Shown: positions 1,125 to 18,413 of the stretch, one piece after another
Numbering within the stretch: the first letter of the stretch is position 1
How the letters are laid out: each line of letters starts with the position of its first letter
Assembly (NCBI GenBank): GCA_041744215.1
Contig: JBGTLG010000038.1
Coordinates: 1 to 62,997 of the forward strand
Source of the DNA: Fimbriimonadales bacterium
GTDB taxonomy: Bacteria > Armatimonadota > Fimbriimonadia > Fimbriimonadales > ATM1
DNA length: 62,997 bases
Direction: 5' to 3'
Made by a program: the position numbers and the translations under genes
Notes under the pieces: model-generated
Databases searched by the model: none
Seen by the model: only the letters and a program-made list of their open reading frames with translations
What the model was told of the DNA's origin: nothing

Positions 1125-1823
1125 ATGATCACCATTCGCAGGTCGGCTGAGCGCGGCCACTTCGATTTTGGCTGGCTCAGCACCTACCACACGTTCTCGT
1201 TTGGCAACTACCGTGACCCCGACTGGATGGGTTTTCGGACGCTCCGAGTGCTGAACGAAGACTTCGTTCAACCGGGCCAAGGGTTTGGTGAGCACGGGCA
1301 CCGCGATATGGAGATCGTGTCGTATGTCGTCTCCGGCGCTTTGCAGCACTGGGACGATATGGGCAATGGCTCGACGATCACACGCGGGCGGGTTCAGCGC
1401 ATGACCGCAGGGCGCGGTGTCAAGCATGCAGAAAAGAACGGCTCCGAAAGCGAAGTGACGCACCTCATCCAGATTTGGATCATGCCCGAGTCTTACGGAC
1501 TCGATCCTGGGTACGAAGAAAAGGATATCCCCGACGAAGCAAAGAAGAATGTGTTGAAACAGATCGCGGCGAGAGAGCCCGAAGCCGACGCGGTGAAAAT
1601 CAATCAAGATGCTTCGATCTATGCGTCAATCCTCGATGGTGGCGTTTCCCTAACACCCACACTCAATCAAGGAAGACACGGATGGCTGCACCTGATCACT
1701 GGCGCGGTTTCGGTAAATGATGAAGACCTCAAGCCTGGGGATAGCGCGGGCATCAGCGACGAGAGCGAGATTCACATCCACGCAAAGGAACCGAGTGAGA
1801 TACTCTTTTTCGATCTGTCTTAG
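1125..1823 (+). CDS. Pirin family protein (YhhW-like bicupin)
   Basis: GWLSTYHTFSF, GFRTLRVLNED, HGHRDMEIVSYV, QRMTAGRGVKHAE, LIQIWI motifs. Confidence 0.93.
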   Translation: MITIRRSAERGHFDFGWLSTYHTFSFGNYRDPDWMGFRTLRVLNEDFVQPGQGFGEHGHRDMEIVSYVVSGALQHWDDMGNGSTITRGRVQRMTAGRGVKHAEKNGSESEVTHLIQIWIMPESYGLDPGYEEKDIPDEAKKNVLKQIAAREPEADAVKINQDASIYASILDGGVSLTPTLNQGRHGWLHLITGAVSVNDEDLKPGDSAGISDESEIHIHAKEPSEILFFDLS

Positions 1824-3339
1824 CGCGCTGATTCTGCTCGGTTGCGACCCATCGCAGTCTGAAGCCATAGTGCAAACACCGCGCGTCGAATCTCTTCCGG
1901 CTGTCGATGCGCCCGAGCAGGACCCGCCGCCGCCGATCGGAGCGCTGGGCACTGCGGGCGACCCAACTGCGTGGAGTCCAGCGAGCGATTTCGGCAAGCC
2001 GATCAATCGAGACTTCGCGGGCATTACCTGCTTCCGTGGCAATGCGCAGCGCAATTACTACGGTGACGGGGCAATCCCTGCTGGCAACTTGCGCGTTCTT
2101 TGGCGCCTCCCGATTGGCTCCGTCGACGGATACTGGACGGGGATCGGTTGGACGGGCCAACCGCTCGCGATCGAGTGGCCCGAGCAAACACGAAAGTGGA
2201 TGAACTTCACCGAGCAGCCTGGCCCGCGCACAGAGATTATCGTTGGCGCGCTCGACGGCCAAGTGCACTTTGTCGATGCGGACACCGGCAGGCGCAGTCG
2301 AAAGCCGCTCAAGATGCCTGCGCCTTATCCAGTCAAAGGAACTGTTACGGTCGATCCGCGTGGGTATCCGTTGCTGCTTGTCGGGCCAGGGATGAATCGT
2401 GGTCAAACCGGTTACCGCATTTTCTCGCTGATCGATTTCAAGGAGCTTTACAATATCAGAGGAATTGATTCAAGCGCGCCTCGAGGCTGGCCGGCGTTCG
2501 ATGCAAACGGAATCGTGCTCCGCGACACGCTTCTCCAGGTCGGCGAGAACGGGATGTACTACCAAGTCACACTCAACTCGTCTTGGGATTCAGACACTGG
2601 CAACCTTAAGATCGATCCTGAGGTTCATAAGATCAGAGTGACCGCAGCAGGAATCGAAAGCAGCGTTTCGGTCTGGGGCGACTACGCGTACTTCGGCGAC
2701 AATGTTGGTGGACTTTGGCGGATCGCCTTGGACTCCCCAAGCGAAGCCCAGAAGGTTGCCACTCTTGGCGATGACAGTGACAGCACAATCACGTTCGACA
2801 ACAACGGCGCGTTCTATGTCGGCATCCAAGTAGATAAGCTCGCGGGCAGGGGTGGGAAAGGCAAGCTGTTCAAATTCGATGCGATGGGAATGAAACCGCT
2901 TTGGACTTACTCATTCACAGCAGGTTCGATAGCGAAAGTTGAGGGGAGGAACGCGATAAACGGAGGGGTGCTTTCAACCGTCGCGCTTTCGGTTGAGCAC
3001 GACCTGGTTTATCTCACTACCACCCATCACCCTAGGATTGGCGGCGGATACCTAATCGCGTTGGAGCGGGAGACTGGGAAGACGCGCTGGCAAATGAAGA
3101 TGCGGGGATATGGTTGGAGTTCGCCGCTCGTGCTTGGAGACCGAGTACTCGCAATCGACAGCGGCGGCAACGTGTTTGTTCGTGATGCGAGTACCGGTGA
3201 TTCGCTACTGACCAATTCGGCGGGCGTTAAGATCGAGTCGATTGCGCTTGGCAGCACCGTCGAAGCATCGCCCATCGTTTGGCGAGAGAAAATCTACATC
3301 GGAGTGCGCGGTGGCGCGCTCATCTGTCTCGGTAACTGA
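1795..3339 (+). CDS. PQQ-like beta-propeller lipoprotein
   Basis: Probable GTG start at 1795 after AAGGAA; lipobox ILLGC; TCFRGN..R and WTGIGWTGQP motifs; repeated D/E..TG...W and SSP/ASP blade motifs. Confidence 0.75.
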   Translation: MRYSFSICLSALILLGCDPSQSEAIVQTPRVESLPAVDAPEQDPPPPIGALGTAGDPTAWSPASDFGKPINRDFAGITCFRGNAQRNYYGDGAIPAGNLRVLWRLPIGSVDGYWTGIGWTGQPLAIEWPEQTRKWMNFTEQPGPRTEIIVGALDGQVHFVDADTGRRSRKPLKMPAPYPVKGTVTVDPRGYPLLLVGPGMNRGQTGYRIFSLIDFKELYNIRGIDSSAPRGWPAFDANGIVLRDTLLQVGENGMYYQVTLNSSWDSDTGNLKIDPEVHKIRVTAAGIESSVSVWGDYAYFGDNVGGLWRIALDSPSEAQKVATLGDDSDSTITFDNNGAFYVGIQVDKLAGRGGKGKLFKFDAMGMKPLWTYSFTAGSIAKVEGRNAINGGVLSTVALSVEHDLVYLTTTHHPRIGGGYLIALERETGKTRWQMKMRGYGWSSPLVLGDRVLAIDSGGNVFVRDASTGDSLLTNSAGVKIESIALGSTVEASPIVWREKIYIGVRGGALICLGN

Positions 3340-14714: not shown

Positions 14715-16115
14715 TTATCGCCTCACGCCAACGCCAATGAGGGCGCCATTCGCCCCAAACAGGTCGTTAACTCCGAAGTAGGTGTACCATCCCTGGGTCA
14801 GCCCGATGCGAGCCCGGATGTCGAACTGGAGGCTGTTCGGGTCGAACAAATCCCCGCTAACCGAAACCCCCGGGAGGACGCGCCAGTCTACCCCAACACC
14901 CGGCTTAGAGGCGAAGATTCCGTACCGTAGGTCGCCGTACCTCAGTGAGTTCCCGTATTGGAGCGTCAGCCTGTTCGACTCCGTTGCGTCATACACGCCA
15001 CCAAAAACGAACGAGTCGTGCGTCAGTGGGTAACGAACAGAAACATCCGTTTGGAACGCGCCCTTCGTCAGGTTTCTGCCTGTCTCAAGCCCAAGACTTG
15101 GGCTGGGCAGTTTGAGGTCCTGCGGAAGCCGGTCGACGAAGTCACTGACTTTGGAGAGAAGCTTTCTGGCTTCGTCGGCTATCTGCTGTGCGCTGTCGGC
15201 GAGCGCGATTGCTTTGTGACTGACGACTGCGCCATCGGCGGTGATCTTCTCGGCATTTTCGGCGATCTTCGTGCCGGTCCGCGTTATGTCCTCCACGTTT
15301 CGCATCGTCGTGTCGATCGCAGCCCTTAAGCTTGGGTCAGAAACGAGCGCGCCCATCTCGGCCACCATCTGCTCGGCGCTGGACGCGGTTTGAGAAAGCG
15401 TCGAGAGCAGTAGCGCGACCTCCTCTCGTAATCCCGGGTCGCCGATCATTTCGGTCATTACGGCGATCCCTTTTCGCATATCCTCGACCGCGAGGGATGC
15501 GTTTACGAGCGCGCTTCTAAGGGTCCCGCGGTTCTCCGCGATCAGCCCACGAGCGTCGGACATTATCAGGCCAACCTGCTTGATCGTCGTCTCGGTGGTC
15601 GCGAGAAGCGAATCCAATCGTGACCTCAAACCGTCGTCACCGAGCAAGTCGCGAATTGCCTCGAGATTATCGTTCAGCGCGGCAAGGGTCCTGTCGCCCT
15701 CCGGGAGGAGTGTCTGAAGAAGCCCTGCTTTCATCCCGCGCAGAGTGCCACCGACCGCTTTCTTGCCTGATTCAGTTCCTCTTTCCGAGACGATGTCAAC
15801 ACGCTGCTCCCCAATGCTTAGTAGGCTTGTAGGGATGAGAACAATTGCGTCATCCGGAACGAAAGTACCCGGGACGACATCGAGCCTCATTCGCGCGCTC
15901 CCGGGACCCAACAGGGACACTTCCTCAATAGTGCCCACTTTGACGCCTGCCATCGTCACAATTGCGCCTGGCTGAATGTTGCCCGCGTCGGCGAACTCCG
16001 CGTAGTAGGTGTCCCCCGGCTTTGCAAAGAGGCTGCTCCCGATGAGACTGTAGCCGACAACCACGAGGGCCACGAAAAGTACGACGAACAACCCAACTTT
16101 CAGCGCTGACTGCAT
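14715..16115 (-). CDS. Long MCE/MlaD protein (TM-MCE-helical stalk-C-terminal beta region)
   Basis: ALKVGLFV TM anchor, F.DA..I.PGA.V..AGVKVG.I MCE motif, long coiled coil, C-terminal amphipathic beta strands. Confidence 0.85.
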   Translation of the reverse strand: MQSALKVGLFVVLFVALVVVGYSLIGSSLFAKPGDTYYAEFADAGNIQPGAIVTMAGVKVGTIEEVSLLGPGSARMRLDVVPGTFVPDDAIVLIPTSLLSIGEQRVDIVSERGTESGKKAVGGTLRGMKAGLLQTLLPEGDRTLAALNDNLEAIRDLLGDDGLRSRLDSLLATTETTIKQVGLIMSDARGLIAENRGTLRSALVNASLAVEDMRKGIAVMTEMIGDPGLREEVALLLSTLSQTASSAEQMVAEMGALVSDPSLRAAIDTTMRNVEDITRTGTKIAENAEKITADGAVVSHKAIALADSAQQIADEARKLLSKVSDFVDRLPQDLKLPSPSLGLETGRNLTKGAFQTDVSVRYPLTHDSFVFGGVYDATESNRLTLQYGNSLRYGDLRYGIFASKPGVGVDWRVLPGVSVSGDLFDPNSLQFDIRARIGLTQGWYTYFGVNDLFGANGALIGVGVRR

Positions 16116-16229: not shown

Positions 16230-18101
16230 CTATCTGCCGGCCAACTCAGCTGCTTTCTTCTTGATTGCGTCAGTCTTTCCGTGCTTCGACAGCACGCTCA
16301 GGGAAGCTTTCGGCATCGGATCGCAGAACTTCTCCACACACTCAAGCGCCAACTCGACTTCTTTGTTGTCACTTGATGCCAGCGAAGCATAAGGCACGCC
16401 AACTTTTCCCTTGATCGAGGTGGTGCTCGTCCGAAGTTTTGTGAGAAAGCCAAGGGCGCCCATCCGGGTATCGCCGTCAGCCGCCAGGAACATCACAGAG
16501 AACAACCGAGTCAAGTGTTCCATGTCCTCGGCTTCGCCCGACGAGACAAGATCGCTAAGTTCCTTAGGAACGCGCTCCATCCACGCTCGCATCGCTTTCG
16601 CATGCTTTTGCGACATCGTCGCGGCGAACCACGCAAACGAATTGTTCTCTGCGAATGGGGATGCCAGGAGCGAAGGGTCAAACAGCTTCGCATTGGACAG
16701 ATCGCTGTCGGCGAGTCCGCCGAGCGACGCGACGTCGAACAGCCCATTCACGTATCGGCTTGTCGAGACTGGAGGGATCAGCCGCTTGTTAATGTCCGAG
16801 AGGGACGCCTTGTCTGTATAGATCCACGTCCTTGCCTGCATCCAAGGACCTCGGAATCGCGACCGCTCGGTCAAGTCCATGAGTCCTCGCAACACCGGAT
16901 CAGGGTTGTAGTAAGGGTAGTACTTGACGCCTTCCTCCGGTTCTTTCATATCCATGTTGACGCAGTGGGTCATCACGTCCATTTGCTCTAGTTCGTGAAA
17001 GTCGATCCCTGCGATCGGGCCGAGGAAGTTGTGCTTGAAGCTAAGGTAGCTTGACATCAACTGGTAGCCGCTTCGATCCGGAGCGAAAAGCGTACCGGAC
17101 GGAATCACGAATTCAGAGCCACACTGCACATCGCCGAGGAGGGATGGGTTGCCTGGGAACTTCAGGCTGTTCATGTCTTCTCCGCGAAGCGTCGCGCCTT
17201 CGAACATGTTGCGAATCTGGTTGATTCCTAACCCTGATCTCGCCATGATGTTGGTCGTGAACTCGGACCCGTATTGATCGGTCGCGTCGCGCAGGTACCT
17301 GGTGAAGTCAGCCTGATACTGAAGTTTCGGAGAATAGGCTTTCCACGGCAGAGTTAGTCCGCCGACACCGAGCTTGTTCTTGTATTCGTCAGTAAAGCTG
17401 ACACCTCCGAGGGTGTACGTAATCGGATCGTCCGTGCCTTTGTCGAATGCAGTTGCGTCAGGGATGTATCGCTCTGAAATCAGCGGATTCAATCGCGGAA
17501 CCTGCCAATCCCCCATCGGGAGAATCACGGTGCCGATCGTGGTGGTGGTGGTGTCATTCAGGGACGGGTATCTGATCTCCTTCTGCAAATCGTACTGCAT
17601 CTCATAGCGGTAAACGTCAAACCCGTATCCGCGAGTCGTCCAGCCATTCGCACGAAGGTCGAGCGAGGGATTGATTCGGTGGCTGCGCGCCGCAAGCGCC
17701 GTCGACAGAGCTTTATTGCCGGTGTGCCAATGGGAACTTGCGGACGATGACCCATAGATCGTCGACGCTGGGCCGGTAAGCACTTCAACCTTCTCAAGTG
17801 CCTCCAAAGTCAAGAGAGGGTCGGGAGGATTGACAAGAATCCCGTCCAGTCGAATATCAGGAGTGGGCATTCCGGGCCGCAAGGTGATCATTGGCCCGGG
17901 CACGCTCTCTCTCGTCACTGTCCCATAAACCTGGCTTACAGCCTTGTACTTAACCAGCGCGTCGACCACTTTCGAGGGGTCAGACCCGTGCGGGATACGC
18001 TCAATCAGTTCACCGCTTATCATGGTTACGTTCGCGGGGCCAAATGGCTCGCGCAGTCCAACCGGCGCGACGGCGAGAATGCAAAGACTCAAATGCAACA
18101 T
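16230..18101 (-). CDS. Secreted multidomain hypothetical protein (TonB-plug-like segment, putative Cys/Gln thioester-like domain, helical C-terminus)
   Basis: SD GGAGG before ATG 18101; hydrophobic N-terminus; LDGI.V...LEKVEVLTGPASTIYGS plug motif; HCVNMDMKEP...MQARTWIYTD. Confidence 0.6.
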   Translation of the reverse strand: MLHLSLCILAVAPVGLREPFGPANVTMISGELIERIPHGSDPSKVVDALVKYKAVSQVYGTVTRESVPGPMITLRPGMPTPDIRLDGILVNPPDPLLTLEALEKVEVLTGPASTIYGSSSASSHWHTGNKALSTALAARSHRINPSLDLRANGWTTRGYGFDVYRYEMQYDLQKEIRYPSLNDTTTTTIGTVILPMGDWQVPRLNPLISERYIPDATAFDKGTDDPITYTLGGVSFTDEYKNKLGVGGLTLPWKAYSPKLQYQADFTRYLRDATDQYGSEFTTNIMARSGLGINQIRNMFEGATLRGEDMNSLKFPGNPSLLGDVQCGSEFVIPSGTLFAPDRSGYQLMSSYLSFKHNFLGPIAGIDFHELEQMDVMTHCVNMDMKEPEEGVKYYPYYNPDPVLRGLMDLTERSRFRGPWMQARTWIYTDKASLSDINKRLIPPVSTSRYVNGLFDVASLGGLADSDLSNAKLFDPSLLASPFAENNSFAWFAATMSQKHAKAMRAWMERVPKELSDLVSSGEAEDMEHLTRLFSVMFLAADGDTRMGALGFLTKLRTSTTSIKGKVGVPYASLASSDNKEVELALECVEKFCDPMPKASLSVLSKHGKTDAIKKKAAELAGR

Positions 18102-18413
18102 ATCGTTCTTCCCTCCAAAGAGCTTCAAGCATTGTACAGGATGAATCATCAGATTGCCCATTCAAGCACGCGGAGCTACGCAGCTCTGCGCCTTTTTTCA
18201 GCCCGGGTTGTTGGTTCGCGGTTGGTTGACTTTAACGCCGCTTGCGGCCTATCGCCAGATGACTACCAGGGAACCGAACGCTGAGACCGGCTCACATTTT
18301 CCGCCAGGAGCGCAGGGAGTGGCCACAAGAAAAAACGGAGGTCACAACGGCGAAACCCGAAGAGGTGGCGCCTGTCGCTCAATCTGAGGCCGAATCAACT
18401 AACCATGACCAAC

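Follow-up and report, generated by a model that had tools for sequence, protein, structure and literature searches.

The thioester domains (TEDs) of Gram-positive adhesins are built around three motifs: the bond-forming Cys lies on a strand in [YFL]C-Phi-zeta, TQxxPhiW lies on the central helix, and the bond-forming Gln lies in a separate strand motif, Phi-Q-zeta-Phi-Phi (PMC4450167, PMC6194298). The Gln and Trp of TQxxPhiW hydrogen-bond the backbone of the Cys and, as judged by mutagenesis, are dispensable for the bond (PMC4450167, PMC6194298). Here we analyse a gene of a Fimbriimonadales bacterium (Armatimonadota) located on the minus strand at positions 16230..18101 of contig JBGTLG010000038.1 (assembly GCA_041744215.1), the first 62,997 nucleotides of which make up the whole stretch of DNA analysed and are called the window below. 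Its product is a protein of 623 amino acids (aa), P0001, the conserved core of which is confidently modelled as a beta-barrel and three-helix domain with TEDs as its best structural matches. A thioester between Cys380 and Gln347, in a chain order permuted relative to the known TEDs, is the best reading of this core, and we propose it tentatively, at a confidence that stays a little short of even.

The gene and those parts of it that bear on this reading are the following (nucleotide positions are those of the window and residue numbers those of the product).

16230..18101, minus strand: whole gene, 623 codons and a stop (stop codon 16230-16232); open reading frame (ORF) list, translation and coordinates checked
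16707..17210, minus strand: thioester-domain-like core, residues 298-465, eight short strands and then a three-helix bundle in the predicted model
17049..17102, minus strand: Gln motif PSGTLFAPDRSGYQLMSS; its Gln347 (codon 17061-17063) is the candidate for the bond
16938..16967, minus strand: Cys motif HCVNMDMKEP, residues 379-388, with Cys380 (codon 16962-16964) and Pro388
16812..16850, minus strand: helix motif GPWMQARTWIYTD, residues 418-430, containing Gln422 (codon 16836-16838) and Trp426; it corresponds to the TQxxPhiW helix of TEDs

The predicted model of the full-length protein has a mean predicted local distance difference test score (pLDDT) of 84.1 and a predicted template modelling score (pTM) of 0.82, and the model of the core (residues 255-485, from a 148-row alignment) reaches 93.1 and 0.89, respectively. 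In the latter, three helices are followed by eight short strands, the seventh of which ends at Cys380, and by a three-helix bundle with Gln422 and Trp426 on its second helix. When the core model was compared by VIA-align with 48,161 chains, ranks 1-6 were all occupied by TEDs, namely 5dcq_D (the FNE adhesin, which we take to be a TED protein), 5a0g (CpTIE-TED), 2xi9 (Cpa), 6fwv (BaTIE), 5a0l (SfbI-TED) and 5a0n (PnTIE-TED); 6fx6 (SaTIE) and 6fwy (EfmTIE86) followed at ranks 9 and 16, which brings the number of TED structures in the top 16 to eight. The TED alignments comprise 94-111 residues with a root-mean-square deviation of 2.7-4.2 A and cover both the barrel and the helices (positions 44-211 of the model), whereas the unrelated matches comprise 64-83 residues and cover the barrel only.

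Conservation was counted in 161 proteins aligned to the family model, the relatives sharing at most 50% identity. Cys380, Pro388, Gln422 and Trp426 are the sole invariant residues, present in every one of the 160 sequences that extend over them (160/160 each), and the same four columns are found in a MAFFT alignment of 148 sequences; the conservation of the Cys and of the Gln of the QARTW motif, on which the first-pass annotation had made its idea depend, is thus borne out. Gly418, Asp430 and Tyr450 hardly vary. Apart from Cys380, no Cys is conserved, Cys327 being C in 50 of 95 sequences. Cys380 stands at the end of a predicted strand (residues 374-380) and is followed at position +1 by L, M, I, T, A or V and at position 382 by N, E, Q or D in 153 of 160 sequences. 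Gln422 and Trp426 fall within a predicted helix (residues 419-430), and the residue before Gln422 is D in 118 sequences and T in 12. The only other conserved Gln column is that of Gln347 (Q in 134 of 135 sequences), which stands in the context G-Y-Q-L-M, 33 residues before Cys380; the alignment holds no conserved Gln downstream of residue 422. The three motifs of the core fit [YFL]C-Phi-zeta, TQxxPhiW and Phi-Q-zeta-Phi-Phi.

Since the bond-forming Gln of TEDs sits on a strand and Gln347 is the only other conserved Gln, Gln347 is the candidate partner of Cys380. The segment MQARTWIYTD is assigned to the helix motif and not to the bond, because the Gln of the corresponding TED helix is dispensable for it. 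The architecture and the thioester-domain idea of the first-pass annotation are both supported, since the top six structural matches are TEDs and the invariant residues are of the TED type, while its choice of the Gln is replaced.

Residue couplings, calculated by a home-made mean-field direct-coupling analysis (DCA) of 134 sequences with an effective number of sequences (Neff) of 120, at which such couplings are weak, connect the Gln strand with the residues that directly follow Cys380 (G345-M385, R343-M385 and S351-M383) and with the next strand (Y346-V392 and Y346-Y394). The Cys segment is coupled in turn to the QxxxW helix (H379-T425, N382-D430, M383-A432 and E387-T429), and the couplings also show a coherent three-helix-bundle pattern. 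Because the Gln strand, the Cys segment and the helix are joined in this way, the three motif segments appear to meet as a TED site requires, the bonding Gln not being distinguished by DCA.

Several results weigh against the permuted thioester reading, beginning with the small Neff just mentioned. The Z-scores of the TED matches (3.8-4.9 for the top six and 3.1-4.9 for all eight) are low and, by the guidance of the tool, inconclusive alone; we placed weight on the clustering of TEDs at the top ranks and on the coverage of barrel and helices together, not on Z. Foldseek, proposed in the first-pass annotation for matching the protein to TED and Plug structures, returned nothing from the PDB at E<=1e-3 with either the full-length or the core model. 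The VIA-align alignments do not extend to the TED residue that forms the bond on the Gln side; the Gln strand therefore has no direct structural match, and the circular permutation is inferred. The residue before Cys380 is hydrophobic but rarely aromatic (L in 43, A in 34 and H in 30 of 159 sequences). Finally, the usual context of TEDs, a Gram-positive stalk with an LPXTG anchor, is wholly missing in this protein.

Sequence profiles give a similar picture. No TED model of Pfam (PF08341 and relatives) or NCBIfam has a match at E<=10 in the protein or at E<=1 in 14 homologues. As a comparison profile, we used the experimentally studied TIE adhesin of plasmid pLS20 and its relatives (20 aligned sequences; the class II TED profile); the site of this adhesin consists of Cys68 and a modelled Gln256 (PMC8092201). 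With hhalign, the whole core was matched to this profile with a probability of only 0.8%, the single local match placing the Gln347 motif on the TIE bond-Gln motif. When the core was split, the best local match of the part before Cys380 was again the pLS20 TIE bond-Gln motif (P 9.6e-4, probability 22%; the best slice, and weak), and in the part from Cys380 on the TIE Cys-x7-Pro motif was matched with P 0.02; these split scores are weak and in part driven by the invariant residues themselves. It should be noted that, when the true class II TED profile was used as a sensitivity control, it did not reach any of the solved TEDs by sequence at E<=0.01, so that blank hidden Markov model (HMM) searches weigh little.

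The alternative that survives best is a TED-related fold in which no thioester is formed, with Cys380 acting as a nucleophile, as a redox or ligand thiol or in a structural role, and with the partner bound non-covalently. The low Z to TEDs, the missing TED HMM match and a context wholly unlike that of the known TED proteins all agree with it. However, the alignments hold no conserved His or other catalytic partner, and neither an Asp/His pair nor a second Cys that would serve catalysis or a disulfide is conserved; the residues that never vary are, moreover, exactly those of a TED site, including two Gln. We therefore regard this alternative as possible but doubtful. A cysteine-protease or transglutaminase reading was set aside for want of a conserved His, His379 being H in 30 of 159 sequences.

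We consider it unlikely that the likeness to TEDs is convergent or accidental and that the core represents a new fold family with a chemistry of its own. The best Z of 4.9 compares poorly with the values of 7-8 typical in the VIA-align search for models without real matches, the Foldseek search was blank, and the probability of the whole-domain hhalign match is below 1%, as this alternative would predict. Eight TEDs in the top 16 of 48,161 chains, filling all of the top six places, would nevertheless be hard to obtain by accident, and the motifs were matched independently of the fold. The blank sequence searches say little here, since the class II TED profile fails on solved TEDs as well.

The pairing of Cys380 with Gln422 of the QARTW motif, as first proposed for this protein, has in our estimate only a slight chance of being correct. 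Gln422 is invariant (160/160), and its helix is coupled to the Cys380 segment, both of which suit a bonded pair. Gln422 is, however, part of a predicted helix, and the equivalent Gln of TEDs does no more than hydrogen-bond the backbone of the Cys, the bond forming without it (PMC4450167, PMC6194298); a second conserved Gln, Gln347, is borne by a strand.

According to the permuted thioester reading, the conserved centre of an exported three-module protein would be a rearranged relative of the Gram-positive TED. After export, the core would form an internal thioester between Cys380 and Gln347 with release of ammonia, and Gln422 and Trp426 on the adjacent helix would hold the Cys backbone as they do in TEDs. 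The Gln strand would precede the Cys strand in the chain instead of following the helices, which would give the circularly permuted order. A primary amine of a target would then attack the thioester, so that an isopeptide bond would connect the target with Gln347. The N-terminal half, which is variable between paralogues, may set the place or the target of the reaction, and the constant repeat tail may bind a common partner.

A more specific proposal, speculative and in its full form improbable, is that the protein acts as a circularly permuted thioester harpoon of a diderm envelope: the plug, taken from a lost TonB-dependent receptor, would dock into or onto an outer-membrane partner, the armadillo tail would hold the common partner, and the Cys380-Gln347 thioester would bond the complex covalently to an amine, either one within the envelope of the cell itself, as in peptidoglycan or another envelope protein, or one of a prey or substrate. 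If true, this would be a new way of linking envelope components covalently, and the TED fold would gain its first permuted member.

The comparison with the known TEDs listed above, including pLS20 TIE, shows several likenesses. The predicted small beta-barrel packed on a three-helix bundle resembles the six-stranded barrel and three-helix bundle of the Gram-positive TEDs, and the invariant QxxPhiW motif on the middle helix is shared with them; a single invariant Cys at a strand end, a Cys-hydrophobic-polar motif and a Pro at +8 are shared with pLS20 TIE, the YQRLM sequence of which resembles the Y-Q-x-M context of the strand Gln of the core. The differences are equally clear. The strand Gln stands 33 residues before the Cys, whereas in TEDs it stands 150-200 residues after it, as in the pair Cys109/Gln261 of SfbI. 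The core belongs to an outer-membrane-bearing phylum, without a stalk of isopeptide or ester domains and without LPXTG, and it has a central place in the chain, flanked by a Plug-derived module and armadillo (ARM)/HEAT repeats. Further Cys/Gln pairs on record for TEDs are Cys296/Gln467 and Cys88/Gln292 (PMC6194298).

TED matches have been stated to occur "exclusively in Gram-positive bacteria" (PMC4450167), and TEDs are framed as Gram-positive in PMC13685950 as well. No diderm TED and no permuted TED came up in our literature search, which covered mostly abstracts. If the bond forms, thioester-domain chemistry would extend to an outer-membrane-bearing phylum, the site would be seen to tolerate a different chain order, a property of use in the design of covalent protein tags, and the plug of a receptor would be seen to have been reused outside a barrel.

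Another class of thioester proteins, the alpha-2-macroglobulin/complement-type proteins, includes periplasmic members in Gram-negative bacteria. By functional analogy with these, the protein studied here would likewise be an exported diderm protein capturing targets by a Cys-Gln thioester. Alpha-2-macroglobulin-type proteins have an adjacent CGEQ motif in a helical toroid domain and exceed 1,500 aa, whereas CGEQ is not found in the 623-aa sequence, in which the Cys and the candidate Gln residues are 33 or 42 residues apart and belong to a barrel-plus-helix domain.

Outside the window, the same genome encodes a small protein (contig C26, locus L009, about 1180-1845, plus strand) whose TED-like motifs, FCVD, LQLVLWE and SQSFV, follow one another in the canonical order; it has a weak Pfam TED match (12.2 bits) and a PEP-CTERM-like tail (VPEP...RRRRKA). 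It is a second, differently built thioester-like protein of this genome. Pairwise BLASTP of the core against it gave nothing, and the family described here differs from it in having the Gln upstream, no sorting tail, a length of about 600 aa and extra modules.

The N-terminal part of the protein is derived from another source, namely the plug of TonB-dependent receptors.

17739..18038, minus strand: Plug-derived domain, residues 22-121; Pfam PF07715, 25.6 bits, E 1.8e-5

The score lies just above the curated cut-off of PF07715 (23.9 bits). In a six-frame search of the genome, this Plug match (29.4 bits) was the sole one, and among the close homologues a Plug match at E<=1 was found in 10 of 14, the best at 1.9e-8; the distant family member P0025 has a match of 41.3 bits. 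BLASTP alignments between N-termini of the family and three TonB-dependent receptors encoded in related genomes were confined to the plug region (best E 2e-9), with nothing of the receptor barrel aligned, and a receptor plug at E 1 was the sole match of the close-family profile among PDB sequences. The N-terminal 100 residues are homologous to the receptor plug and include the stretch E-V-L-x-G-P-x-S-x-x-Y-G, whereas the barrel and the C-terminal aromatic residue of the receptors are absent. The plug signature without a barrel or terminal Phe, pointed out in the first-pass annotation, is hence confirmed on both counts: a Plug HMM match exists, as do the BLASTP matches to receptor plugs of relatives, and the protein has no PF00593 match and ends in ...AELAGR, its last residue being Arg. 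Overall, by the criteria of sequence comparison, the plug is real but diverged.

In the genome itself, which is 93.2% complete, neither a receptor barrel nor TonB_C nor ExbD was found, ExbB not having been searched for; among 41 related genomes, 14 encode receptor barrels, but none of the three genomes of the same genus does. The plug is a domain that outlived its receptor context, because it is the sole Plug match of a genome without barrel, TonB_C and ExbD, and for the same lack it cannot act as a TonB-gated cork there. A reading of the gene as a TonB-dependent receptor in decay, its barrel gone, was rejected: the Plug match and a length of 623 aa, near the 630-680 aa of the receptors of related genomes, would fit, but the frame is intact, 252 cluster representatives share a strongly conserved non-receptor core, and the similarity to receptors stops with the plug, the remainder being modelled confidently as other domains.

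Between the plug and the core lies a region of different character.

17340..17738, minus strand: residues 122-254, a beta-rich middle region in which the strands predicted at 153-178 and 183-214 are very long (DSSP of the full-length model)

Its strands are 26-32 residues long, with polar and hydrophobic residues alternating. The region has no family match, and an ESM Atlas search with residues 125-300 gave no usable match; the corresponding search with residues 290-500, which covers the core, returned only unnamed clusters below 0.9. Structure searches with the full-length model were filled by the C-terminal ARM/HEAT repeats and were uninformative on residues 1-300. Weak Foldseek rows for this model include pore-forming toxins in the pore state.

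The C-terminal part consists of the repeats just mentioned.

16233..16784, minus strand: armadillo/HEAT-like repeat tail, residues 440-623, by structure and profile matches

In the full-length model, residues from about 440 to 623 match ARM/HEAT structures with a VIA-align Z of 8-9.6, and the family profile matches designed armadillo proteins with E 2.1e-18; Pfam HEAT_2 is matched below threshold only, in some family members. The HEAT-like helices seen earlier at the C-terminus are thus supported both by structure and by the family profile.

A word-indexed search retrieved 15 proteins, including the query, at E<=1e-3, and a profile search of 1.84 billion representatives retrieved 252 cluster representatives at the same threshold, 133 of them at E<=1e-30. 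Similarity over the full length is limited to the closer members, and the others align over residues of about 300-620 only, the N-terminal half being exchanged for other modules in some members. The family was found in 14 of 41 near relatives; in a sample of 301 genomes from the whole phylum it was found in 11, which all belong to two families of the same order. All 24 related loci lie in metagenome-assembled genomes of Armatimonadota, mostly of Fimbriimonadales or Fimbriimonadaceae, and of 10 distant cluster members one is labelled (Armatimonadetes bacterium). Among the genomes searched, the family is found only in Fimbriimonadales (Armatimonadota).

The exchange of modules can be seen in a paralogue of the same genome (contig C4, 106086-108098, plus strand; 671 aa, identical to P0128), which has a Cys/His-rich N-terminal half instead of the Plug-derived module and shares the three motifs (VQDM, LCLNMFKREP and GPWDQVRMWIVTD) and the repeat tail. 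In the distant member P0088 (812 aa), a T2SS-T3SS_pil_N domain (a pilus-secretin-type N domain) stands ahead of the same core, and in P0103 and P0114 this place is taken by DUF6765. One related genome carries two family members in tandem on the same strand (G034:C9:391537-395337).

The start of the gene and its signals are as follows.

18054..18101, minus strand: hydrophobic N-terminus MLHLSLCILAVAPVGL, which lacks a basic n-region and is probably an export signal
18112..18116, minus strand: Shine-Dalgarno sequence GGAGG, 10 nt before the ATG, read from the sequence
18131..18160, minus strand: promoter-like site TGGGCA-18-TACAAT, a match to consensus only and weak (1 found versus 1.0 expected in shuffles)

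The open frame on the minus strand extends over 16230..18161 in the ORF list; a search for RNA runs gave no RNA holder. The earlier choice of the ATG at 18101 as the start agrees with the GGAGG upstream of it and with the close homologues, all of which begin at the equivalent Met. The signal-like character given to the N-terminus holds insofar as the protein is hydrophobic from residue 1; there are, however, no basic residues in it, and canonical signal peptides are present only in more distant family members. In the predicted model, pLDDT is below 50 over residues 1-14. From the hydrophobic N-terminus and the canonical signal peptides of the distant members, we infer that the protein is probably exported. 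Its earlier designation as a surface protein is not upheld by any anchor signal, be it LPXTG, PEP-CTERM or a lipobox, and a barrel is likewise absent.

The window belongs to the core chromosome. The upstream neighbour of the gene encodes an acyl-CoA dehydrogenase, and its downstream neighbours encode an MlaD-domain protein, ribosomal protein L9 and DnaB. In the related loci compared, no gene neighbour is conserved beyond close kin, and the flanks are housekeeping genes, for example gyrB, proS, tpiA, icd and ftsH; an operon partner was rejected on these grounds. The MlaD-domain protein (466 aa; PF02470, E 2.5e-11) is encoded at 14715-16115 on the minus strand, 114 bases downstream of the gene, and is extended at its C-terminus by a long stretch in which Gly and aromatic residues abound; its pairing with the gene is not kept in relatives. 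Between the acyl-CoA dehydrogenase gene and the gene described here, both on the minus strand, a GC-rich terminator-like hairpin with a T-run on the plus strand is located at 18169-18190.

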